Shown: positions 12,584 to 49,535, counted from the first letter of the stretch. The stretch: DNA of 52,837 bases from an uncultured Planctomycetales bacterium (GCA_964591605.1 CAZQEN010000004.1:1-52837), one strand, 5' to 3'. Numbers and translations: made by a program. Notes: generated by a model not told the origin, from the sequence alone.

Positions 12584-12656
12584 TCCAGGGTAGCTCAGAG
12601 GATAGAGCACACGGCTGATAACCGTGAAGTCGCTGGTTCGATTCCAGCCCCAACGC
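12584..12656 (+). tRNA. tRNA-Ile(GAU)-like sequence with non-complementary acceptor arms (possible pseudo-tRNA or recombination scar)
   Basis: The D arm (GCTC-AGAGGATA-GAGC), the anticodon arm (CACGG-CTGATAA-CCGTG) and the T arm (GCTGG-TTCGATT-CCAGC) are all canonical. The 5' TCCAGGG and 3' CCCAACG arms pair at only 3 G-C positions plus one wobble. Confidence 0.45.
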
Positions 12657-12964: not shown

Positions 12965-13037
12965 AGACGCCCATGATCCAACGGTGGCGAACCGGGCTCC
13001 AAACCCGGTTGGGTGGGTTCGATCCCCACGGCGTCTG
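12965..13037 (+). tRNA. tRNA-Trp(CCA), D-arm aberrant
   Basis: The acceptor AGACGCC/GGCGTCT is perfect. The anticodon arm is CCGGG-CTCCAAA-CCCGG and the T arm is GTGGG-TTCGATC-CCCAC. The D region CATGATCCAACGGTGGCGA keeps the AACGGT loop but has C at position 8 and a poorly paired stem. No CCA is encoded. Confidence 0.55.
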
Positions 13038-37410: not shown

Positions 37411-37950
37411 GTGGACGATCGAGAGCAGACTCAACGGCTGCAACAGGGTGACCCGGAGGCACTGCGCGCGATCTATGTGCGGTACAAGGACCACCTGCTG
37501 ACGGTGGCAACCTGCCTGCTGCTGCATCGCGAGCCGGCCGAGGATGCGTTGCACGAGGTGTTCGTGACCCTGGCCGGTGAGGCTCGTCGCCTCCGTGTTC
37601 GCGGGAGTCTGAAGTCGTATCTCGCGGCGTGTGTGGCGAACCGGGCCCGGGATGAACTCCGCCGGCGGGCACGCAGGCCGGCCGGCGCGGACGGGCTCGA
37701 GCAGACGGCCAGCCCGGCTGCGGATCCGCTCAAGACGGCGATCGATGCCGAGGAGACTGCGCGTCTGGGGACAGCTTTGGCCGAGCTGCCGTTCGAGCAG
37801 CGCGAGGTCGTGGTGCTGCACCTCCAGGCGGAGATGACCTTCGTCGAGGTGGCGCAGCATCAGGGAGTCTCGATCAACACGGTACAAAGCCGTTACCGGT
37901 ACGGAATGGACAAACTGCGGTCGCTTTTGCAGGCAGGAGTACGCACATGA
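37411..37950 (+). CDS. ECF-type RNA polymerase sigma factor
   Basis: Region 2 (YKDHLLTVATCLLLHREPAEDALHEVFV) and region 4 HTH (LPFEQREVVVLHLQAEMTFVEVAQHQGVSINTVQSRYRYGMDKLR). GTG start. Confidence 0.9.
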   Translation: MDDREQTQRLQQGDPEALRAIYVRYKDHLLTVATCLLLHREPAEDALHEVFVTLAGEARRLRVRGSLKSYLAACVANRARDELRRRARRPAGADGLEQTASPAADPLKTAIDAEETARLGTALAELPFEQREVVVLHLQAEMTFVEVAQHQGVSINTVQSRYRYGMDKLRSLLQAGVRT

Positions 37951-39182
37951 AGCCCGCAGACAACATAGAGCGTGTCATCAGAGAATTGAGAGTACAAACA
38001 AGCGCCGAGCTCGATCAGCGCATCCTCTCGGACGCCTTGCGCGCCCTGGAGCATGGCGACGCGGGCGCGGCGGACTCGACCGCAAGGGGCGGACTTCGTC
38101 CTCTTTGCCGGTCATCCTGGAGACGCATCATGCAGAGCAACTGGATCAAGCCCCTCGCCGCTGCGGCGGCCATCGGGATCGTGGCGATATTGTTTGCTAC
38201 CCTGCACCGGTCGGCACAGCCCGCGTACGCCCTTGAGCAGACGATGCAGGCCAACCGCGGCCTGCGCTTTGTCCACATCCGTTTCGGGCCCGCGGGTGAG
38301 GTGGTGAGCGAGACGTGGGCGCAGATCGACGAGCAGGGACAGGTCGTTCGGCTCAAGATGGCCCTCAACCGGACGGAGGACGGCCCCAAGGTCGTGCTCT
38401 GGGAAGGTGACAAGGCGGAAGTGTGGTTCAAGGACAAGCGGATCGTCGGGGTGCACCGTGATTCGGAGACGATCACCACTTTCGCGAACATGCTGAGGGA
38501 GTTCGAACCCGTCAGAGTGATCGAAGAGCTGTATCGTGCGCAGGCTGAGGGGCGCGTCGCAGTCGAGACTTCGCTGCCGGTCAGACGGGGCGATCCGATC
38601 ACGTTGACGGCGACGACCGCTCAAAAACCCGGCCAGCAGACGGTCTATCTGATTGACGCGCAGACCAAGCTGCTGCAGCGTCGAGAGGTGTACGAGTGGG
38701 ACGGGAGGCAGCATCAGCAGACATCACGCTGGGATTATCTCGATTACAACCAGGAGCCGGCGGAGGAAGTTTTCACGCTCGGAGCGCCGGCCGACACCGT
38801 CCGAATCGACCATACCACGCAGTTGATCGGTCTGCCGAAGGGGACGCTGTCTGACGCACAGATCACGGTCCAACTGGCTCGGGAGTTTTTTGAGGCGTTG
38901 ATCGCCGGAGATCACGCCCGGGCCGGCCAGCTTCTGAGCGGATTGCCGGCCGAGCGGGTGCCCGAGATCCTCCAGAAGCTGGGCTGGGATATGAAGTTTC
39001 TGCGGATCGTTTCGATTGGCGAGCCCGTGCCGCAGCCGGTCGCCGGCGTGGGCGGGACGGAGGTCACCTGCCAGGTGGAGGTGGAGGTGAACGGGGTTCC
39101 CACGATCCGGACGTTTACGCCCGCCATTCGCGCGGTGTCATCGAGTCAGCCGGAGCGGTGGGCCATCCACGGCGGGACGTGA
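37947..39182 (+). CDS. putative anti-sigma factor / single-pass membrane protein with ~300-aa extracytoplasmic domain
   Basis: Coupled to the sigma gene by an ATGA overlap. It has a ~65-aa cytoplasmic part and the TM segment WIKPLAAAAAIGIVAILFATL. No domain was recognised in the C-terminal part. Confidence 0.6.
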   Translation: MKPADNIERVIRELRVQTSAELDQRILSDALRALEHGDAGAADSTARGGLRPLCRSSWRRIMQSNWIKPLAAAAAIGIVAILFATLHRSAQPAYALEQTMQANRGLRFVHIRFGPAGEVVSETWAQIDEQGQVVRLKMALNRTEDGPKVVLWEGDKAEVWFKDKRIVGVHRDSETITTFANMLREFEPVRVIEELYRAQAEGRVAVETSLPVRRGDPITLTATTAQKPGQQTVYLIDAQTKLLQRREVYEWDGRQHQQTSRWDYLDYNQEPAEEVFTLGAPADTVRIDHTTQLIGLPKGTLSDAQITVQLAREFFEALIAGDHARAGQLLSGLPAERVPEILQKLGWDMKFLRIVSIGEPVPQPVAGVGGTEVTCQVEVEVNGVPTIRTFTPAIRAVSSSQPERWAIHGGT

Positions 39183-39383
39183 ACGCCGTGCGCCTGTCCA
39201 GGCATGCAGAAAGCTGATGCAGGAGAGCAGGCCGCGGAATCAGGCGGCCTGCTCGCTGTTCCGGGGGCTCTGTGCGAGCCTTGCTGACACAGCGCGTGCG
39301 GCGGCGTAAACGGCCGCGTCGCATCGGCTACCATCTTTCGCGAGCCCTGCATGTGGACTTGGCTCTCTGGAGATGATTCAGCC

Positions 39384-39515
39384 ATGTGTGATGAGACCAC
39401 CACGCGACGAGCGGTATTGAAGGCGATCGGTCTGGGCGCGACGGGACTGGGGCTGCAGACTGCCGCCGCGGCCAAGGTCTTCATGGTCTGGGACTTCTTC
39501 TCCCGCAATCACTGA
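39384..39515 (+). pseudogene. 43-codon ORF consisting only of a twin-arginine signal peptide (probable decapitated oxidoreductase gene)
   Basis: MCDETTTRRAVLKAIGLGATGLGLQTAAAAKV, then 11 unrelated codons and TGA. The signal resembles that of the Gfo/Idh/MocA gene at 48333 ([25 protein letters not shown]). Confidence 0.4.
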
Positions 39516-39740
39516 GAGTGCATCCCAAAGCTCCGCAGCGCCCAACTCTGTGGCTGGTCGATGCGACGACCGTCCCGCTGGAGTCTTCGGCGGTTTCTCA
39601 CGCCGCAGGGATCTGGACAAGAACTGGTGTGCCGCCAGAGGATTCGCGGGTCGACTGCCAGGTGCTCTTCCTCAGCCTCCTCGCGCTCGCCCTCAAAGAA
39701 ACCAGGACCCCCGGCGTGTGGTATCATGACAGGGTGCGAC

Positions 39741-40703
39741 ATGGCGAGACCTCAATCTCTGAAGTTGTTGGCAACCGCAGAGAGGATCTCTATGGGCGGC
39801 CACTATTTCAAACCAATCCGGAACCGCGGATCGAGTAACAGGGCTCGACTTCAGTCAGACGTGAAGGAGTTGCTGACGCTTCTGTCTATCTGCGTCATCG
39901 AACCGTTTGTCCGCCTGACGGACAACAACGCCCTCGCCATTCCTCTGGACCTCACGACAGCTACCGATCCCGAAGACCCCATAGCGAATCCCGCTCATCC
40001 CGTTTGCGCAGCGTACGCCAGCAGCGACTACTGCCGGGAGTCCTGGCAATACCATCTGGCAGAGCTAGCCCGTCGGCCGCAGTCCCATTGGCACAGGTGT
40101 GATTACGATAGACTCTGCGCGATCGTACCCGTTGTCTACCGGAACAGATGCCTGGCGGCCGTCAAACTGGCCTGTCCGGCCTCGATGCCGGAGGGGGATT
40201 TCGAATCTCACGTGGAGCTTCTGGACAGCCTGGTCGAGGGCTTCGTGATGGCCCACAGGGATCTCCTCAGCCGAATGGCGCACGAGCGGGCCATCTCCGG
40301 GGCCGCTCGACCCTCTTCGCGCGACGATGACGGCACGCGTAACCAGCATCCCACTCATCCACAGGTTCTCCGGGCCATCGATTACATCAACAAGCACCTT
40401 TCGGATCCCAAGCTGACCGTTGGTGCCATCGCACGCGAGCTGGACATCGATTCTTCCTACCTCGGCAATCTCTTCGCTGATCAGATGGGTCAGCGAATGA
40501 GTTGGTTTATAGCCTCTCAGCGCGTCGAACTGGCCAAAGACTTGCTTGCCACCACCCATCGACAGGTCAAAGCGATTGCCCTCCAAACCGGCCATGCCAA
40601 CCCGAACTGGTTCTGCCATATCTTCCGTGTTCATACCGGTCTGACGCCCAACGGTTATCGACGGCAGTCCCGCCAGCAACCACGGATCTCCTCGGATTCC
40701 TGA
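39741..40703 (+). CDS. AraC family transcriptional regulator with Cys/His-rich PocR-like sensor domain
   Basis: C-terminal double HTH (LTVGAIARELDIDSSYLGNLFADQMG...VKAIALQTGHANPNWFCHIFRVHTGLTPNGYRR). The N-domain has HPVCAAYASSDYCRESW...HWHRCDYDRLCAIVPVVYRNRCLAAV. The start is uncertain: 39726, 39741 or 39792. Confidence 0.85.
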   Translation: MARPQSLKLLATAERISMGGHYFKPIRNRGSSNRARLQSDVKELLTLLSICVIEPFVRLTDNNALAIPLDLTTATDPEDPIANPAHPVCAAYASSDYCRESWQYHLAELARRPQSHWHRCDYDRLCAIVPVVYRNRCLAAVKLACPASMPEGDFESHVELLDSLVEGFVMAHRDLLSRMAHERAISGAARPSSRDDDGTRNQHPTHPQVLRAIDYINKHLSDPKLTVGAIARELDIDSSYLGNLFADQMGQRMSWFIASQRVELAKDLLATTHRQVKAIALQTGHANPNWFCHIFRVHTGLTPNGYRRQSRQQPRISSDS

Positions 40704-40905
40704 GAGAACGTCGGGCTGAACGGGCCACTCTTCCATAGCCACTTTTGTTCCGGGCCGCTCCATCGGCACGGCGGTCGCACAAACAGCGCAGGATTTCCGG
40801 AATCCGTATTGTGGTTCCTGAACCGATTTGTTTTCCGTGTGAAGTGGAGAGTGGAGAGATTAGGGTGAAGGGTGAAGTATGAAGTGCTGGTCAGGGATCG
40901 GAGGA
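40551..40905. repeat. direct repeat copy 1 (araC 3' end + downstream non-coding block)
   Basis: Aligns by eye, base for base, with 41918-42256. Most positions are identical, including a 27/27 run GGCACGGCGGTCGCACAAACAGCGCAG. Confidence 0.9.
40795..40824. promoter_or_regulatory. conserved palindromes TTCCGGAA and GGTTCCTGAACC (candidate operator), copy 1
   Basis: Located at 40795-40802 and 40813-40824, about 140 nt upstream of the PEP-CTERM gene. Both motifs are identical in copy 2. Confidence 0.4.
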
Positions 40906-40961
40906 GATGGTCTGTTCGAAGTCGGATGGGCCGAATCCGGTTCCGTCTTTAGGAGGGGCGC

Positions 40962-41645
40962 ATGATGAGAAGTCGGATGGGAAGAGTCGTCTTGGCGGCT
41001 CTGGCTGTCTGTGTCGCGCAGGGGGTCTCATTTGGACAGGCGTTTACGGAAACGTTCGACACCGGGATCCCGGCGTCATGGTCGATCGTGGATAACTTCC
41101 CCATCCCGGGGAGCCCGGCTCACAGTGCCGTGCCGTGGACGACCAATGTGCTGGAGGGCATGGGCAACTACACCGCAGGAAGCGGCCAGGCGGCTACCGG
41201 CAGTTCGTACAACCACTCCGGGCAGTATGACATTTCGCTGATCATGCCCGCGTTCACCATCTCCCCGGTACCGGGTGAGGACAACCTCCGCTACCGGGTC
41301 AACTATCAACGCGTGGACGCCTTCGAGGCGTTCGACACGAACATCAGCATCAACGGCGCACCCTGGGTGACGATGGTGCACGAGACTTCCAGCCTGGGTG
41401 CGTGGTACAGTGCCGGCCCGCCCAACGTGATGCGAGTGATCGATATGGGCTTCTTCGGGGCCATGCCAGGCGACCTGGTGCGTGTGGAGTTCCGCTACTA
41501 CAGTACCTACCTGCTGCCGATGGTACACAACGAGTACGTCCAGATCGACGACGTGAACTGGGTGCTGCCGGAGCCGGGAACTCTGGCCCTGCTGGGACTG
41601 GGCGGCTTGACTGCGATCCGGCGCCGGCGCGCGGTCGAGCATTGA
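40962..41645 (+). CDS. PEP-CTERM sorting domain protein with choice-of-anchor-J/MAM-like N-domain
   Basis: AGGAGG RBS and signal peptide MMRSRMGRVVLAALAVCVAQGVSFGQA. The motif FTETFDTGIPASWSIVDN is present. The C-terminus VLPEPGTLALLGLGGLTAIRRRR combines PEP, a TM helix and an Arg cluster. Confidence 0.88.
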   Translation: MMRSRMGRVVLAALAVCVAQGVSFGQAFTETFDTGIPASWSIVDNFPIPGSPAHSAVPWTTNVLEGMGNYTAGSGQAATGSSYNHSGQYDISLIMPAFTISPVPGEDNLRYRVNYQRVDAFEAFDTNISINGAPWVTMVHETSSLGAWYSAGPPNVMRVIDMGFFGAMPGDLVRVEFRYYSTYLLPMVHNEYVQIDDVNWVLPEPGTLALLGLGGLTAIRRRRAVEH

Positions 41646-41917
41646 AGGCACGTTCGCACTGTCGCGCTCGATCGACCACGTAGACGCGTCAGGCGGCGGC
41701 CGCTTTCTCTGGCAGAGGCCACTGAAAGATCTTAAATGAGTCGTTAACCACTTGTGTGCCCATGTGGCACCCTTCTTTGACGAAGACCGCGACGTGGAGG
41801 GTGATGATCTGATGACTTTCAGGCGCTGCGTTTCCGAATTCGCGAGGTGACGCTGGGCGGTCCTGCTCCGCTTACTTGGGCTCGCCCTCAACGGAACGAG
41901 GATTAGGGTTGTTCACA

Positions 41918-42070
41918 ACCACCCATCGACAGGTCCAAACGATTCCCCTCGAAAGGGGCCATGCCAACCCGAACCGGTTCCGCCACGTCTTCCGTGTTCA
42001 TACCAGTCTGACGCCCAACGGGTATCGACGGCGGTGCCGCCAGCAACCAAGGGTCTCCTCGGATCCCTGA
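41918..42070 (+). pseudogene. orphan 3' fragment of an araC-family gene (last ~50 codons)
   Basis: TTTHRQVQTIPLERGHANPNRFRHVFRVHTSLTPNGYRRRCRQQPRVSSDP aligns with the C-terminus of the regulator at 39741-40703. No upstream HTH or sensor domain is present. Confidence 0.75.
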
Positions 42071-42158
42071 GAGAACGGATCGAACGGGCCTCTCTTCCAT
42101 AGCCACTTGCGTTCCGGGCGATTCCGCTGGCACGGCGGTCGCACAAACAGCGCAGCAT

Positions 42159-42188
42159 TTCCGGAATCCATATTGCGGTTCCTGAACC
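42159..42188. promoter_or_regulatory. conserved palindromes TTCCGGAA and GGTTCCTGAACC (candidate operator), copy 2
   Basis: Located at 42159-42166 and 42177-42188, about 340 nt upstream of the giant gene start. Confidence 0.4.
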
Positions 42189-42523
42189 GGTTTGATTTCT
42201 GTTCGAGGCGGAGAATGGCAAGATTAGAGTGAAGTACTGGGTCGTAGCTAGGAGGAAATGATCCGTTTGCATCGGACGGGCGTCTCCATGAAAACGCCGG
42301 ATGATGCCAAGGCGGATGCGAAGAATCGTCTCAGTATGACAGCGCGTGCAACCGGACCCCGCCATGGGGCCGTTCGATCTGCGCGGAATGGGAGATCGGA
42401 CCATCGACGAGTTGGCCCGCGAAGACTGGCCGGCGGCGTGTTCGCGAGAGACTTCAGCGGAGGAGAGGCAAACCCCGCTTGACAATGCGCCGCATGCTGT
42501 CCGGCAGGGGCAGGAGAAGAATC

Positions 42524-45500
42524 ATGAGCCGTATTGCAGGACGCTGGCAGGGAACCTTGCTGGTCGCGCTGGGTGCGGTGGTCTTCGGGATCGTCGGCGA
42601 AGGCTGCACACCAGTGCAGCAGCAGAGCGCAGCCACGCTTGAGATGGCGGAGGAACGCAACGTCGGCATGGCGGCATGGCACGGATCACGGACGATCGAG
42701 TGCATGACCATTCCCGACCCGCAGTTGCGCGAGGAGTGCCTGCGGAACCGCGACGGGCTGTACTGGCAGTATTACTGGGCGATCTACCGCGGCGAGGCAT
42801 CGATCCCGGCCCTCGATGAGCCCCGCTGGCAGGCGGAGATGCAACGAATCCACTCCTCCTACGCCACAGGGGGCATTACCGCCGCACAGATCCGCGCGGA
42901 GCGGAAGAATTCCCGGGGCGTCCTGCTCGGTCCTTCCGGCATGATCTCGGTGGAGATCCCGATGCAATCGTCCGGCGGACCGGTCTTTTTCGCACAACCG
43001 GGTTCGCAGACAAAGCTCAATGTGGCTGGCTTCCCCATCCAGGTCTACAACGTCTCCGGTTTCATGGTCGCTCAGGTTGTGCCGGTGGGTCCCGATTGGG
43101 AGGTTACCGTCAACGACCTCAACCTGACGCTGCAGCACGTTTCTGGCGACATGCGGGCGATGACCACAGCGGCCCGCGACGCCGCGGGCAACGCGAGTAC
43201 GCCCGCCTCGGCGACCCTCTCGGTCGACCCGCTGAACACTGCACGGGTCAAGGGTACGCTCGATATCGTCTTGGCCTTGGGCAACCCCAACCGAGGCGAT
43301 CCGGTGTGGGTAGCCCGGCTGCCGATGACCGCTCCCAATCCCCCGGTCAACGCGATGACGTTCACCACCGGCGGTCTGTACGCCCCGGGCACAACGGTGT
43401 TCCCGACGCTCGCGTCTACCGCCAATGCCAACGCCGACTGCAACAACAACGGTATTCCCGACGGCCCGGAAATCGCCGGCGGCCAAGCCCAGGACTGCAA
43501 CCATAACGGTGTGCCGGACGACTGCGACATTGCCGCGCGCGCTGCTGACGACTGCAATGCCAACGGTGCGCCCGACGCCTGCGAGATCGCCAGCAGGACG
43601 CAGGGTGACACGAATGTCAACGGCCTGCTGGAGCCAGCGTGCGAATTCGTGGACTGCAACGGCGACGCCATCGATGACTTCCTGCAGCTTACCGCACTGG
43701 ACGTAGACCGCGACGGTTCTATCGACACCTGCGAGCAGGACTGCAACGGCAACGGCGTGTTCGATTACATCGATCTGAGTCTTGGCACATCGGCGGACTG
43801 CAACGTCAATCGTGTGCCCGATGAATGCGATGCGGGTACACAGCCGGCATTCGCTCCAGCGGTTAACTACGCAACTCCCTTAGCTGACAGCGCCCTGGTC
43901 CTGGGCGACTGGGACGGTGACGGCGATCTGGACGTGGCCAGCGCCAGCGATTCAGCCCCCCAGGTTGCGCCCCTGGTCAACGACGGCAATGGCGGATTCA
44001 CCCCGGCGCCCGTTGCTCCGCTCACGTCGGTCACCAATGGCATGGTTGCCGCCGCCTTGGACAACAACCCTTCGCCGGACCTGGCCGTCGTGAGCAGTTC
44101 CGCCGCCACGCTGACCGTGCTGCTCAACACCGGCGGCGGCACGTTCATCCCGCAGACGACCATCGCCCTGACCGTGGGGTCCGCACCTTACTCCGTCGCA
44201 GCGGGCGATCTGGATGGAGACCTCGACAACGATCTGGTAGTTGCCAACATCCAGGCCCATACGTTCTCGGTGCTGCTGAATCAGGGAAACGCGACGTTCG
44301 CGCCCCGGGTGGATTACACGAGCGGAGGACAGGGTCCGATCTCCGTCGCGTTGGGCGACATCGACGGCGACGGCCGTCTTGACGTGGTGCTGGCTAACCG
44401 CTTCTCGCGGACGATCGGCTTGCGGCTCAATGACGGCTATGGCCACTTTACCGCCCCGCCATTGGCGGTAGCGGTAACCGGAGATCCGATTTACGTCACG
44501 ACGGCCGACCTCGACGTTGCGGGCCGCCACGACATCATCGCCCTGTGTGATTCAACGGGGGAGGCAGTGATCTATCAACTGGACGGCACGACCCTGGTGT
44601 TGCGGGCGACCATCGAGTCAGGGTCGAGCTGCAATCCCAAATCCGCGGCCGCGGCCGACTTCAACAGGGACGGCGGGCTTGACGTGGCGCTAGCCTGCAA
44701 CGGCACGGCTTCACTTCGCCTAGCGGTGCGTGACGCCGCGGGTGCCTACCCCTCTCCGACATCATCTATCTCCGTGGATGCAGGCCCGGTATCGGTCCAG
44801 GCCGGCCGTCTCGACGCAGATACCGAAAGCGACTTGGCCGTCACCGCCGGTGCGGGTGTCTGCGTGCGGCTCGCTCGGCCGGTCACGGGCAGCAGCCCCG
44901 ACTGCAACAGCGACGGCGTGCCCGATGAGTGCCAGACCGCGGATATCGACATGGATGGGCGGCCGGATATCTGCGATAACTGCCCCGAGGCAGCCAACCC
45001 GGGCCAGGAAGACGGGGACCTCGACGTCGCAGGCGACCTGTGCGACAACTGCCCCGGGCGGGCCAACCCGGCCCTGGCCGCCGTGCTGGCCGACAGTCTC
45101 CGGCTGGTCGTGGCGGACTCCAGCTCCCTGCGTTTGTTCAATCCGAACGCCGCGCTGATCAGCTCGACGGCTCTGGCCGCTCGCAGCGACGTCGTCCGCC
45201 AGGGGGACCGGCTTATCAGACTGGATCGTGAATACGGCCTGATGTACGTGTACGACAGCAATGGCAACCAGATCGACGTGATCTCCTTCACCGGCCGCGG
45301 CGAGGTCGTCATGAACGGCGACCGCATCGTGCTGATCGACGATCTGGGCGTGCGTATCCTGGACCTCGACGGCAACGTTCTGTTGACGCTTCCCACGCCT
45401 GCACGGGCCCGCGTGCAGATTGACGCCAACGGCATCATTGTGGTGTGGGATGGGAGCCCTGGTCAGGTCGTTTTCCTGAACCGTGATGGCTTGTGGCAAG

Positions 45501-47878
45501 GTGAGCAGAACAGCTTTCGCCGGATTGCCGTTACTGCCGATGGCGATCGGATCGTGACTGTCACCGAGACAGAACCCGGCGTCTACCTGATCACTATCTT
45601 TGATCGAGGGTTCTTCACGGTCAAGATCGCGGAACGGATGGTCGACGGACAGGAGCCCCGGATCATCATCGACGGGGACCGGATCCTCATCATCGAGTAT
45701 TCCGACACGTGGATCCTCGATCGAGATGGCAACCCGATCAACGTCATCGTGGGCCACGGGCCCAAAGATGTAACCATCAACGGTGACCGCATCGTCATTA
45801 TCGAATACTTCGCCTACGGCTTTGCGGTACGCGTTTACGATCGCAACGGTTCTGCGATCGGCGGCAAGATCTATCAGTCGGATCTCCTCTTCACCATCAC
45901 CAAGGTCATCATCAACAGCGACCGGATCATCGTGGTACGCGCCGATGGGATTCGCCTGCATGACCGGGACGGCTACGAGGTGGGCGACCGGATTCCCGTT
46001 ACGGTTCAGGGACCCCGACAGCCCACGGTCCTCGTCGAGGGTGATCGGATCGTCGTGATCGACGATAACTCCATTCGCTTCTTCGATCGCAACGGGCAGA
46101 TGAAAGGTTCGCCTGTCGCGACCAACGGCACGGGGGAGGTCGTCGCGGCGGGCGATCGCTTCGTCGTCATCGACAATGCGGGCATCCGGATCTACGACCG
46201 CGACGGCAACTTCGTGTACTCAACCGGGACCACCGGCCGGCCGACGGTCGTCGTTGGCGGTAGCCGAATCGTTCTGATCGACGATTTCAGCGTCCGCATC
46301 CTGGACCACGACGGCAATCTGATCGGCCGCGAGATCTTCCCCGCCGGCCGGGCCAGCGTCAGCATTGTGGGTGACCGGATCATCATCAACGATTCGGAGA
46401 AAGTCCGGGTCTATAACCTTTCGGGCCAGGCCATCGGCGCGGCTGTCAAGACAAGGAATCGCTTTCAGGCCGATGCCGACGGGGACGGTGTCGGCGACGC
46501 CTGTGACAACCTGCCGGACGTCGCCAATCCGGATCAGGCCGACTCGGATGGCGACGGTCTGCCCGACGTCATCGACAACTGCCCACGCCACTTCAATCCG
46601 GACCAGTTTGACGGCGACGGGGATGGTGTGAGCGATGCCTGCGACGAATGCCCGGACACCATCATCGGCGCGCCGGTCCACGGTACTGGCTGTCCGTGGT
46701 TGGTGCCCGGTGATTTCGATCGCGACGGGGATGTGGACGGCAACGAAGTTCAGCTCTTTGCGAGCTGTGCCGCCGGACCTGCGATTCCCCTCCTGCAGAA
46801 CTGCGCTTTCGTGGATTTTGATCGCGACGGTGACGGCGATCTGAACGACTTTGGCCGTCTCCAGGTATGCTTCAGCGGCCAGGACCAGCCCGCCGATCCA
46901 GACTGCGACGCTGCGTTGACCGTCTCGCAGCTCAACATCACGTTCGACGGCCAGTACCACCCCGACACCGACTGGGGCATGGTGAAGGTGCCGTACGTCG
47001 GCTCCGCCGGGGTCCTGTACTTCAACCTGGCCGTCAACGGCGCCTGGCAGGTCCGAAACATGCCTGTGCTGAGCCCGCGCGGTGCTGGCGTCCGCCAGGC
47101 GGACCGCTTCTACTTTGACCTGGAGGTGCCGACCGGCACTGACGTGCCCTCGTTGTACTACGCTTGGGAGCTCACCCACGCCGTGCGGACGGAAATGCCC
47201 GCGGGCGCGACCTTCGCGATCATGGCCGACGAGTGCTCCTCCTATTCCAAGTCCAGCGGCACCCAGGGCCAGAACATGGACCTCCAGGATGCCGGCGGTG
47301 TGCTCGATGGACGCCAGGTCGTCGGCCAACCGGCCACCCAGACGGACTTCCCCAACCAGGAGTGCGGCGAGAACGAGTGCGTCCCTGCCGCGATCTCCAA
47401 CAGCATCCAGTGGCTGAACAAGAAGTACAACCTTGGGATTCCCCCCGAGGACACCACGATCGAGAAGATGAAGGAAGTGGCCAAGTGGGATAAGGAACTC
47501 GGCGGCTGCGACGACAACTGGCCGCAGAGGAAACAGGACTGGATGAAGAAGAAGGGGTACAAGGTCACGACCACTCCCGTGCCCCGGTTCAACATTGCCA
47601 GCGTTTATGAATCCATCAAGAAGGGCTGCGACGTGGAGGTTCAGATCAACCATCATTGCGCGGCCGTCACTGGCATTCAGAAGCTGGCTGCTGACGATCA
47701 GTATGACGACGACTGGGTACTCAAGCTCTCCTCCGACGACGGTAAGGGCGACGGGGGCAAAAAGGCGACGACCGACACCGTCGTTTATGATGGCGAGTTC
47801 CAGCGGTTCCACGGCGCTCCGTGGGTCGAAAACCATTCACCGGACATGATCGTCGTTGAATGCAAGGAGGACCAGTGA
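42524..47878 (+). CDS. 1784-aa multidomain surface/secreted protein
   Basis: AGGAGA lies 6 nt before ATG 42524, and the hydrophobic N-terminus is [17 protein letters not shown]. Domain order with approximate nt ranges: unknown N-terminal domain; DCNxNGxPDxC repeats (43435-43832); FG-GAP repeats such as [13 protein letters not shown] and [14 protein letters not shown] (43860-44880); TSP3 motifs DxDxDGxxDxCDNCP (44899-45070 and 46462-46660); 12 tandem ~40-aa repeats (45099-46452); dockerin-like module (46709-46906); Cys-His C-terminal domain (46907-47875). Confidence 0.9.
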
Positions 47879-48332
47879 CTTGCCGACCGGACACAAAGCC
47901 ACCGCTGAAGTCCTGAATCCCACGAGTCGGATGTGGCAGGATCCAGCATCAACTGACGGGCGACAAAAGTGAGAATGGGAGCGCCAAGCGTTGGCCCCAG
48001 GACCCGGGCAACTGCATAATTGTCGTCGCGGCGGAACAAAGCCAGCGAACGATTCTAACATATCGCATGTGAGGGATTGCAGACCAGGAGGGAGAGATCT
48101 GTGCGACACCGCCGTCTTGGCTGCCGGTGCTGGGTTCTCATTAGGAGTGCCCGGCCGCGGGACGGCGGTGCCGAAAATGCAGTATTGGGAGATCGGGAAC
48201 GAATTGAAGTTGGTGATTATGGTGCGTTTCCAACCAACCACCGGGATGCACTCTGACACTGACAGCATCCGCGAGCAACAGCTCGAGCACTCCGCCAAGT
48301 CGCTGCAAGGAGACGCTCAAGGAGACCGGTCC

Positions 48333-49535
48333 ATGGCTGTTGATTCCATCACGCGGCGTTCGCTGTTGCAGGCGATGGCTCTTGGCGCGGCCGGACTGGG
48401 GCTGCAGGCTGCCGCCGTGGCACAGGAGCCGGCGATTGAGGGGTTCGAGCCTTCCCAAACCGACCCCGATGCGTCGCGGGGCTGGAAACCGATTTCGGAC
48501 CGCCGGCTCCGCGTCGGCCTGGCGGGTTACGGCGTGTGTAAGTTCGGGACGGCGTTCAGCTTTCAGCATCATCCGAACGTCGAGGTAGCGGCGGTGACGG
48601 ATCTGGATCCGGAGCGTTGCGCGACGATGGCGAAGGTGGCGCGGTGCGAGAAGACGTATGCGTCGGTCGAGGGAATGCTCAAGGATGATCGGATCGAGGC
48701 GGTGTTTCTGGCCACTGATGCCCCCAGCCATGCGCGGCTCGCGATCGCGGCGCTCGATCGCGGCAAGCACGTGGCGTCGGCGGTGCCGGCCGTGTGGGGG
48801 TCGCTCGAGGATGCGGATGCACTGTTCGAGGCGGTGAGACGCAGTGGGCGGACGTACATGATGTTCGAGACCTCGTGTTTTCATGAGGATCTTTACGCCA
48901 TGCACGAGATCTATGCGGCGGGTGGCTTCGGGAAGCTGGTGTACTCGGAGGGCGAATACTATCACTACACGGAAACGCCGATTGACTCCTTCAGAGGCTG
49001 GCGCGTGGGCTCGCCGCCGCAGTGGTACCCGACGCATGCGACCGCGTATTACGTGGGCGTGACCGGCGGGAGCTTCACCGAGGTCTCGTGCATGGGCATG
49101 CCGAGCCTCAGGCCGTTCCTGAAGCCCGAAAACAACCGTTACAAGAACCCATTCGGCACGGAGATTGCGCTGCTTCGCACGAGCGAAGGCGGCATGGCCC
49201 GGATGGTGATCAGCAAGGATACGCCCGGCCACGGGGGCGAGATGGGGCGCATCCGCGGACAGAAGGGCAGCTTCTACGGCAAATACGAAGGGCTCGAGAA
49301 GAACCTGCCGCCCACGCGTCGGCCGCCGCTGCCGCCGGGTGTACAGGCGGGGGGTCATGGTGGCTCACACGGCCCCCTCATGGCCGAGTTCGTCGCCGCG
49401 ATTCTGGAAAGCCGCCGGCCGCGGGTGGATGTCGTCGCGGCGCTGAACATGACGGTGGCCGGGATCGTCGCGCATCAGTCGGCGCTCAAGGATGGCGAGT
49501 TGCTGAAGATCCCGCAGTATGCGTGGCCGGGGTGA
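48333..49535 (+). CDS. Tat-exported Gfo/Idh/MocA family oxidoreductase
   Basis: AAGGAG RBS, Tat signal [27 protein letters not shown], and Rossmann N-domain RVGLAGYGVCKFGTAF...VAAVTDLD...IEAVFLATDAPSHARLAIAALDRGKHV. Confidence 0.9.
   Translation: MAVDSITRRSLLQAMALGAAGLGLQAAAVAQEPAIEGFEPSQTDPDASRGWKPISDRRLRVGLAGYGVCKFGTAFSFQHHPNVEVAAVTDLDPERCATMAKVARCEKTYASVEGMLKDDRIEAVFLATDAPSHARLAIAALDRGKHVASAVPAVWGSLEDADALFEAVRRSGRTYMMFETSCFHEDLYAMHEIYAAGGFGKLVYSEGEYYHYTETPIDSFRGWRVGSPPQWYPTHATAYYVGVTGGSFTEVSCMGMPSLRPFLKPENNRYKNPFGTEIALLRTSEGGMARMVISKDTPGHGGEMGRIRGQKGSFYGKYEGLEKNLPPTRRPPLPPGVQAGGHGGSHGPLMAEFVAAILESRRPRVDVVAALNMTVAGIVAHQSALKDGELLKIPQYAWPG

Follow-up and report, generated by a model that had tools for sequence, protein, structure and literature searches.

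An AraC regulator-promoter cassette and its decayed duplicate upstream of a giant gene in an uncultured Planctomycetales bacterium: a probable case of regulon expansion

Reuse of one promoter in front of unrelated genes and promoters built on direct repeats that bind AraC-type activators are both already known. Promoter capture or reuse is thought to be a common route of bacterial regulatory rewiring, of which usually the end product alone is visible. Here, we describe a locus in a 52.8-kb stretch of DNA from an uncultured Planctomycetales bacterium (GCA_964591605.1 CAZQEN010000004.1:1-52837; hereafter "the window," whose numbering is used for all positions). In it, a gene encoding an AraC-family regulator, the promoter behind it, and the start of the gene that follows, which encodes a PEP-CTERM surface protein, recur as a decayed duplicate upstream of a giant gene. 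Because intermediate debris survives in this duplicate (remnants of the region upstream of araC, of the regulator gene, and of the downstream "cargo" gene), the path of duplication of a whole unit followed by deletions is readable from the sequence. We propose that the locus records regulon expansion, in which a regulator-promoter cassette was duplicated and the regulator copy that had become redundant was lost, and we give this reading a probability of roughly 0.6.

Promoter reuse was surveyed by Matus-Garcia, Nijveen and van Passel (NAR 2012), who found more than 4,000 families, most of them pairs, and who on purpose excluded pairs with paralogous flanking coding sequence (PMC3575422). As in their cases, two unrelated genes of one genome are preceded by highly similar DNA (identity of 80% or more over 50 nt or more), with no known mobile element. 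Measured against that threshold, which the survey set for nonparalogous genes (PMC3575422), the copies described here are identical at 58 of 61 core positions and at 85.6% of 320 alignment columns. They depart from the survey's placement at −150 to −50 and from its exclusion of paralogous flanking coding sequence (PMC3575422), as the promoter block lies at −180 to −96 in copy 1 and at −378 to −294 in copy 2, and copy 2 is flanked by an araC fragment and a 12-codon cargo stub. The locus further differs from described promoter reuse in that its origin is visible, with a regulator stump and a stub of the former downstream gene on the copy. These remnants indicate that a whole regulator-target unit was duplicated and then suffered deletions, and not that a bare promoter moved. 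A further difference is that the promoter that was copied has a conserved orthologous counterpart in 17 other loci.

Activators of the AraC/XylS family (AraC at araI1-I2, RhaS, and XylS) recognize direct repeats that recur every ~21 bp and adjoin or overlap a weak −35 element. The present locus resembles their promoters (araBAD I1-I2, rhaBAD, and Pm of XylS) in the C-terminal double helix-turn-helix (HTH) of the regulator, in direct repeats ~20 to 21 bp apart, in a poor −35 and a recognizable −10 element, and in a regulator gene that adjoins its target. It differs from them in several respects: the regulator is only distantly related to characterized members (NCBIfam scores far below equivalog cutoffs), its N-terminal domain is Cys/His-rich and weakly PocR-like, its gene is codirectional with the target and not divergent from it, an invariant GCGCAG box stands 5′ of the first repeat, and the operator is predicted from sequence.

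Two further comparisons are instructive. The transcriptional regulator of YSIRK-targeted surface antigens (TIGR04094) is likewise a dedicated AraC-type protein encoded beside the gene of a sorted surface protein; however, similarity to it is limited to the HTH (44 bits versus a cutoff of 200), it belongs to another phylum, and sorting at the present locus is of the PEP-CTERM/exosortase and not the YSIRK/sortase type. Duplicated regulator-target pairs that lose one regulator share with our locus a pseudogenized redundant regulator and two cis-sites of the same sequence, but here the second target is no paralogue of the first, as the duplicated cargo was lost and an unrelated giant gene follows the promoter. 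Our full-text searches turned up no paper that links PEP-CTERM with AraC and no description of this regulator or motif, only papers on promoter reuse in general. We regard as new the visible debris documenting the route, and a promoter/operator model for an uncharacterized, weakly PocR-like AraC subfamily of Planctomycetota. To our knowledge, few promoters have been mapped in Planctomycetota. The model is testable (a GCGCAG box, two covarying repeats 20 bp apart, and TAnnnT at +75) and connects this AraC regulator with PEP-CTERM genes and those of other surface proteins.

A duplicated araC-promoter-gene-start cassette

The features of the cassette, its duplicate, and the flanking genes are as follows.

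39642-39707, + strand: segment upstream of araC, copy 1 (85 to 150 nt upstream of the start codon), the leftmost traceable end of the duplicated unit
39792-40703, + strand: intact gene of the AraC-family regulator (303 amino acids; gene call P0001), with a C-terminal double HTH and a Cys/His-rich, weakly PocR-like N-terminal domain
40551-40870, + strand: copy 1 of the high-identity repeat as delimited by pairwise alignment, comprising the last 50 codons and stop of araC (40551-40703) and 167 nt of intergenic DNA
40889-40992, + strand: start of the PEP-CTERM gene (~10 codons) with its leader and ribosome-binding site, ~70% homologous to 42240-42331
40962-41645, + strand: gene of a PEP-CTERM surface protein (227 amino acids) with a choice-of-anchor J domain (TIGR02595, NF038128, and Pfam PEP-CTERM)
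41838-41902, + strand: what is left in copy 2 of the region upstream of araC, immediately before the araC 3′ fragment and collinear with 39642-39707
41918-42070, + strand: copy 2 araC 3′ fragment (50 codons and stop), a pseudogene identical to copy 1 at 136 of 153 positions
42240-42339, + strand: decayed leader and start of the former second cargo gene, from local alignment and frame translation
42524-47878, + strand: giant gene (1,784 amino acids), with an N-terminal hydrophobic segment and FG-GAP/VCBS and thrombospondin-type-3 repeats

The duplication is most evident as a direct repeat of 40551-40870 and 41918-42234, which are 85.6% identical with 2 small indels (gapped local alignment; blastn E = 6e−104). 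A repeat search reported two segment pairs (40542-40710 versus 41909-42077, 88%; 40718-40870 versus 42082-42234, 85%), which the gapped alignment merges into one. Two runs quoted in a preliminary description of the locus, GGCACGGCGGTCGCACAAACAGCGCAG (40765-40791 and 42129-42155) and ATTTCCGGAATCC (40793-40805 and 42157-42169), are indeed identical in both copies. That description had the repeat extend for ~350 bp, over 40551-40905 and 41918-42256; we recover the repeat, but its high-identity block stops at 40870 and 42234, and weaker homology reaches 40992 and 42331. Two Logan contigs assembled from sequencing runs other than that of the window match it at 99.9% identity, one of them (L019, from SRR15237815) corresponding to 39649-43039, which covers both copies, and the other (L018, from SRR15237799) to 40904-45750. 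Because these independent contigs match the window, the repeat structure is genuine and not an assembly artifact.

Homology continues beyond both ends of the high-identity block. Upstream, 39642-39707 and 41838-41902 are 72.7% identical over 66 nt (blastn E = 0.001 to 0.002), with a local alignment score of 57 that none of 500 dinucleotide shuffles reached (21.9 ± 3.5). Downstream, 40889-40992 and 42240-42331 share ~70% identity with indels (score of 60 versus 22.2 ± 3.7; 0 of 500 shuffles reached 60), and an ATGATG at 42301 begins a 12-codon remnant (42301-42339) that matches MMRSRMGRVV of the PEP-CTERM gene. Given significant homology on either side, including a piece from upstream of araC, a larger unit was copied and then underwent an internal deletion. 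The spacing between copies is 2,196 nt at the left remnant and 1,367 nt past the junction, which yields a deletion of ~829 bp, and copy 2 is without ~830 to 840 bp of araC, equivalent to roughly 39708-40545. As judged from these alignments, the duplicated unit is ~1.35 kb long (39642-40992) and comprises the araC upstream region, araC, the promoter, and the start of the cargo gene, and copy 2 is a decayed duplicate of this whole cassette that was then partly deleted. The earlier view that only the araC 3′ end with adjoining DNA (~350 bp) had been duplicated is not borne out, as the remnants at 41838-41902 and 42240-42331 point to the whole cassette. A deletion inside the duplicated cargo gene would be expected to leave similarity between 41646-41837 and 42332-42523, and blastn gave no such match.

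The intact regulator gene was assigned its start at 39792 from homologues and from the existing 303-amino-acid gene call. Its product matches Pfam HTH_18 over positions 1 to 80 of 80 (53 bits versus a cutoff of 33.6; E = 4.4e−14). The N-terminal domain matches Pfam PocR (PF10114) below the cutoff (15.1 bits versus 23.9; E = 0.02), and two homologues of the regulator (P0020 and P0049) have a precomputed PF10114 match. The 95 homologues are 40 to 67% identical and mostly ~295 to 330 amino acids long. The regulator does not fall into a characterized AraC subfamily, as its matches to NCBIfam equivalogs cover the HTH only and lie far below the cutoffs (AraC, 69.6 versus 208; PocR, 51.8 versus 500).

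In copy 2, by comparison, only positions 42 to 80 of HTH_18 are retained (22.9 bits, below the cutoff), and the first HTH and the N-terminal domain are gone, in agreement with the earlier description of a fragment that lacks an upstream HTH and sensor. The same description's assignment of the fragment as a pseudogene fits its truncation and its codon differences from copy 1, of which 13 are nonsynonymous and 3 synonymous. In a comparison with ten homologues, copy 2 has replaced at least seven residues conserved or predominant in AraC relatives (K, A, T, W, C, G, and S), with W to R and C to R changes in the NWFCH motif, and copy 1 shows two departures only, both conservative. No gene is called at the fragment in the independent contigs. 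By these measures, the fragment is a pseudogene, its substitutions being consistent with relaxed constraint. The noncoding flanks of the promoter core differ by ~24 to 27% between copies, equivalent to ~13 to 15% in each lineage, compared with a difference of 11% in the araC-derived part. Given these flanks, 88.9% identity in the araC-derived part is what would be expected with copy 1 alone constrained.

Of the 17 substitutions in the araC frame (40551-40703 versus 41918-42070), 11 affect the first codon position, roughly half of these being AT to GC. When read in the +1 or the antisense frame, the araC-derived part has 9 synonymous and 9 nonsynonymous differences each, and the antisense frame is without stop codons. 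A gene hidden in another frame of copy 2 was rejected, since the +1 frame has a stop and no gene is called there in the independent contigs. For these reasons, and because about half of the position-1 changes are AT to GC, the excess is attributed to GC-biased drift of the pseudogene, although it is unexplained in detail.

A conserved promoter block behind AraC genes and its cargo

To place the noncoding part of the repeat, we compared it with DNA behind related AraC genes. With the AraC protein as query, GTDB genomes yielded 16 Planctomycetota loci (43 to 51% identity), some of them labeled Phycisphaerae, and four metagenome contigs carry closer homologues (63 to 67% identity). An nhmmer profile was built from 14 sites in good register, the two window copies included. 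At E ≤ 0.01, it detects the block in 14 of the 16 genome loci and in three of the four contigs with closer homologues (E = 0.23 in the fourth). The block lies on the same strand as araC and shortly after its stop codon (80 to 95 nt in the closest relatives), with one exception (L005) in which it is ~1 kb further on. Each locus, examined over up to 21 kb, has one block, and two are present only in the window and in one related locus (L008). The consensus reads CA-GCGCAG-GA-TTTCTCGGAT-N8-TTTCTCGGAT-N~6-GATTTYC. In the window, the block and its associated hexamers are located as follows.

40782-40837, + strand: operator block of promoter 1 (nhmmer, 34.7 bits, E = 3e−9; conserved in ungapped and MAFFT alignments of the relatives' sites)
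40861-40866, + strand: −10-like hexamer TAGGGT of promoter 1, a TAnnnT at a fixed offset from GCGCAG
42146-42201, + strand: operator block of promoter 2 (nhmmer, 33.2 bits, E = 1e−8), with GCGCAG at 42150
42225-42230, + strand: TAGAGT, the −10-like hexamer of promoter 2, at the same 75-nt distance from GCGCAG as its copy 1 counterpart

Promoter 1 begins with ACA-GCGCAG (GCGCAG at 40786), followed by half-site 1, TTTCCGGAATCC (40794-40805), half-site 2, GTTCCTGAACCG (40814-40825), and a T-rich third element at ~40829-40837. The half-sites of promoter 2 (42158-42169 and 42178-42189) have the same sequences as their copy 1 counterparts. Across loci, the half-sites are 12-mers at offsets 8 to 19 and 28 to 39 from GCGCAG, 20 bp apart, and they resemble each other more within a locus (8.06 of 12 positions) than between loci (6.46 of 12; 0 of 20,000 permutations). 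They read TTCCGGAATC / TTCCTGAA in the window's clade and TCTCGGAT twice in most other loci.

A TAnnnT hexamer lies 74 to 77 nt from GCGCAG in 18 of the 19 AraC-linked sites, and the nineteenth has CATAGT; in the window, the hexamer is inside the repeat in both copies. As a negative control, metagenome contigs were scanned with a 20-nt pattern, CAGCGCAGNATNTCYSGRAT, representing the first 20 nt of the motif, and at least 120 stretches matched. TAnnnT occurs at that offset in 0 of 119 unrelated matches listed. Among the matches listed, all appear chance-like (at most 23 bits versus at least 33 for true sites), and none adjoins an AraC homologue.

A simple scan of 39400-42700 found no pair of sigma-70 consensus −35 and −10 elements, which fits an activator-dependent promoter. 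Two direct-repeat half-sites about two helical turns apart, an operator at a fixed distance from a −10 element, and a weak or absent −35 consensus are all features of such promoters. We propose that the block is an AraC-type, activator-dependent promoter of ~100 bp, in which two direct-repeat half-sites have their centers near −73 and −53, the −35 region is occupied by a T-rich element, and TAnnnT serves as the −10 box. Transcription is predicted to start near 40873 at promoter 1, giving an 89-nt leader before the ATG at 40962, and near 42237 at promoter 2, ~287 nt upstream of the ATG of the giant gene. The adjacent AraC protein is the likely binder of the repeats, given its adjacency in 17 loci and the clade-specific half-sites. 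The regulator-promoter cassette thus defined would be conserved in a Planctomycetota lineage that includes Phycisphaerae-labeled metagenome-assembled genomes (MAGs).

Around the −10 box of copy 1, purine-rich short repeats occur (40833-40885, + strand; GTGAAGTGGAGAGTGGAGAGATTAGGGTGAAGGGTGAAGTATGAAGTG) and are partly kept in copy 2. In L008, a contig of a related MAG, two complete promoter blocks (1859-1945 and 2028-2114) lie 169 bp apart between the AraC and PEP-CTERM-like genes, with GCGCAG at 1863 and 2032 and TAGCAT at +76 in each, and their mutual similarity is confined to the motif.

The protein encoded behind promoter 1 has the PEP motif, hydrophobic helix, and basic tail (...VLPEPGTLALLGLGGLTAIRRRRAVEH) of PEP-CTERM/exosortase substrates. 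It matches TIGR02595 PEP_CTERM (23.6 bits; cutoff of 16), NF038128 (31.3 bits; cutoff of 30), and Pfam PEP-CTERM. Small proteins with a PEP-CTERM-like tail are encoded in the same position in six relatives. Of these, L013 and L022 score above the Pfam PEP-CTERM cutoff, L007 and L020 score below it, and L004 and L008 have no match, their tails being recognized by alignment only. In the relatives, the promoter would drive a secreted surface protein, usually a small PEP-CTERM protein. The preliminary description had suggested that orthologous loci be compared to find the ancestral copy; the comparison points to copy 1. Because the relatives' cargo consists mostly of proteins with a PEP-CTERM-like tail, copy 1 is, on this comparison, the ancestral arrangement with the PEP-CTERM gene as its original cargo, and copy 2 is derived. 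No orthologous preduplication locus is present in the data. With 67% identity in even the nearest AraC homologue, relatives offer no means of dating the duplication.

The giant protein matches Pfam FG-GAP_3 (E = 5e−32) and TSP_3 (E = 5e−11), and its gene is called at the same ATG in both independent contigs. A reading of the termini found no PEP-CTERM tail at its C-terminus, which excludes it from the exosortase substrates. The possibility that the giant gene is a diverged copy of the PEP-CTERM gene was ruled out for lack of homology between the two proteins (no BLASTP similarity; best E = 1.7). In tblastn searches of the related loci L001 to L017, the giant gene has no homologue, and of ten window proteins, AraC alone is common to them. 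The interior of the giant gene (43435-44944, + strand) contains repeats with a 57-nt period that encode DCNxNGxPD (dockerin- or thrombospondin-like calcium-binding motifs), as well as FG-GAP repeats with a 150-nt period.

The cargo proteins behind the promoter in relatives are mostly unrelated to one another, and L008 has two complete promoters. These two observations leave room for a broader, tentative reading, in which the AraC gene and its ~100-bp promoter form a hitherto undescribed expression cassette found across a Planctomycetota lineage (Phycisphaerae-like MAGs), with cargo swapped among unrelated secreted or surface proteins; we regard it as possible but not probable. If it holds, the window would show such a swap under way, with a cassette that duplicated, an extra regulator in decay, and an extra promoter left driving a new gene, and the regulator and promoter would be a reusable module for surface-protein expression and not the fixed control of one gene. 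Among the larger cargo proteins, that of L014 (11267-15853) exceeds 1,529 amino acids and has HYR and cohesin domains, and those of L002 (11228-13399; 723 amino acids) and L011 (1448-3682; more than 745 amino acids) are related to each other.

Maintenance of the second promoter and alternative explanations

The preliminary description had argued for selection on the regulatory DNA from better conservation of the noncoding half of the repeat. The alignment gives the reverse: the noncoding part (40704-40870) is identical at 139 of 167 positions (83.2%; 84.8% without gap columns), versus 88.9% for the araC-derived part, an outcome that the description itself had named as refuting its idea. However, differences within the noncoding part are unevenly distributed. 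A 61-bp core (40765-40825) is 95% identical, compared with 76% (81 of 106) for its noncoding flanks (Fisher's test, P = 0.002). In a 111-column alignment of the promoters, the 17 differences between copies avoid columns conserved in 15 relatives, with a mean information content at differing columns of 0.26 versus 0.65 overall (permutation test, P = 0.00045) and changes in 1 of 33 conserved columns versus 16 of 78 others (Fisher's test, P = 0.02). The three core differences affect the variable base after GCGCAG and the spacer, and T to C at 40812 is the sole change at a conserved column. In copy 2, GCGCAG and the half-sites have not changed, the T-rich element is still present, and the −10 box retains its T, A, and T. 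This pattern shows selection on the promoter pair and is not proof for copy 2 alone. The earlier claim of selection on regulatory DNA thus stands for the core and loses its argument from the whole noncoding half. Likewise, promoter capture by duplication stands in outline, with the promoter now before the giant gene, and its extent and supporting argument were wrong.

These data can be set against several other accounts of the repeat. Two same-strand copies within 1.4 kb might represent a miniature mobile element or a chimeric assembly. We consider this hardly credible, as the window holds no third copy (blastn and the nhmmer promoter profile), the repeat search found no terminal inverted repeats around the repeat, the 14% divergence between copies argues against a collapsed or chimeric repeat, and two independent assemblies have the same structure. 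That only ~350 bp were copied, with selection evident from higher identity in the noncoding than in the coding-derived half, agrees with a high-identity block of ~320 bp that contains the quoted runs; it is nevertheless very unlikely in view of the opposite ranking of the two halves and of significant homology beyond both ends of the block. The position of the block between two same-strand genes, the small palindromes in the window's half-sites (GGATT..AATCC and GGTTC..GAACC), and a terminator-like site scored at 42176-42189 would suit an RNA element, such as a structured 5′ leader, a riboswitch, a small RNA, or an araC terminator. We rejected this alternative, which is very improbable: RNAalifold predicts 0 consensus pairs over 17 sequences, an Rfam 15 covariance-model scan of the window gives no match in the region at the gathering score, the palindromes are missing in most relatives (where the half-sites are TCTCGGAT), terminator-like sites are as numerous as chance predicts, and direct repeats with a TAnnnT at fixed distance amount to promoter-like conservation. 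A sigma-54 promoter is a further candidate for the duplicated and preserved element. The sigma-54 consensus is TGGCAC-N5-TTGC, and the 27-nt identical run holds a −24/−12-like GGCACG-N4-TCGCA with the GG-N10-GC spacing of that consensus; the pattern, GGCACGGCGGTCGCA, occurs in the 52.8-kb window solely at 40765-40779 and 42129-42143 (+ strand), just upstream of GCGCAG. It is not conserved at the orthologous promoters, being missing from the closest relatives (L023, L020, and L022) and every other locus although the block downstream of it is there, and no gene of an enhancer-binding protein was found among the genes scanned around the cassette (37411-49535). AraC-family proteins are also not known to act as sigma-54 activators, and we rejected this candidate as very unlikely.

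More weight is due to the possibility that copy 2 is a dead relic, whose promoter is intact through short time or gene conversion, with the giant gene transcribed from a promoter of its own in 42340-42523 or by read-through from the PEP-CTERM gene. Several points weigh for it and against a working promoter 2. A neutral copy 2 would show at most 1 change in the 33 conserved columns with a probability of 0.03 to 0.22, depending on the rate estimate, and the statistics would look alike whether both promoters are constrained or promoter 1 alone is and promoter 2 was lucky. Similarity in the core does not significantly exceed that in the araC-derived pseudogene fragment (P = 0.2), and gene conversion between the copies could account for the long identical runs. 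Promoter 2 lies 294 nt upstream of the ATG of the giant gene, versus 96 nt between promoter 1 and its gene, and within its long predicted leader are the remains of a gene start and an upstream open reading frame (ORF) of 74 codons. A further weakness, which concerns the regulon-expansion reading as a whole, is that AraC is tied to the motif by adjacency and by clade covariation, the latter confounded with phylogeny; the transcription starts, the identity of the binder, and whether it activates or represses are likewise predictions. On the other side, the remaining parts of copy 2 have fallen to 70 to 76% identity and suffered deletions, but the 61-bp core is at 95%, and neither the half-sites nor the T, A, and T of its −10 box have changed. 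Copy 2 is separated from the PEP-CTERM gene by a terminator-like hairpin (41756-41770), which counts only weakly against the relic, as such sites are no commoner than chance. We judge a mere relic to be unlikely, though far from negligible. Given the neutral probability above, we rate somewhat better than even the chance that promoter 2 is functional and drives the giant gene.

Under the reading that we favor, regulon expansion by cassette duplication, the cassette (the araC upstream region, araC, the promoter, and the cargo start) was, as the alignments indicate, copied downstream of the PEP-CTERM gene. This probably occurred as a tandem duplication of ~2.2 kb (taken from the left-end spacing of 2,196 nt) that was afterwards trimmed by deletions. 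The second araC lost ~840 bp, leaving a 3′ stump to drift as a pseudogene, and of the second cargo gene only the 12-codon stub remains. The single remaining AraC protein would bind the two identical operators as tandem subunits and activate both promoters, and the giant FG-GAP/thrombospondin-repeat protein would thereby be coregulated with the PEP-CTERM protein.

Leader ORFs and neighboring genes

Each promoter is followed by a leader ORF on the + strand, at 40898-41095 (62 codons) and 42248-42482 (74 codons), with a strong Shine-Dalgarno sequence and ATG (GGAGGAGATGG and AGGAGGAAATGA, respectively). The two peptides are dissimilar, and the 74-codon ORF ends 42 nt before the ATG of the giant gene. 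The leader of copy 1 also has an internal repeat, GAAGTCGGATGGG, at 40918 and 40969.

Elsewhere in the window, the sole Rfam match is a tRNA at 12588-12651 (+ strand; 53.5 bits; model positions 5 to 66), and ARAGORN reports only a tRNA-Trp at 12965-13037 (+ strand), each program missing the locus of the other. Immediately upstream of the araC cassette is a gene pair that tblastn does not find beside the AraC homologues of relatives. It consists of a gene for a sigma factor of the extracytoplasmic function (ECF) type (37411-37950, + strand) and, overlapping it by 4 nt, a 411-amino-acid ORF with no family match (37947-39182, + strand), which may encode an anti-sigma factor.

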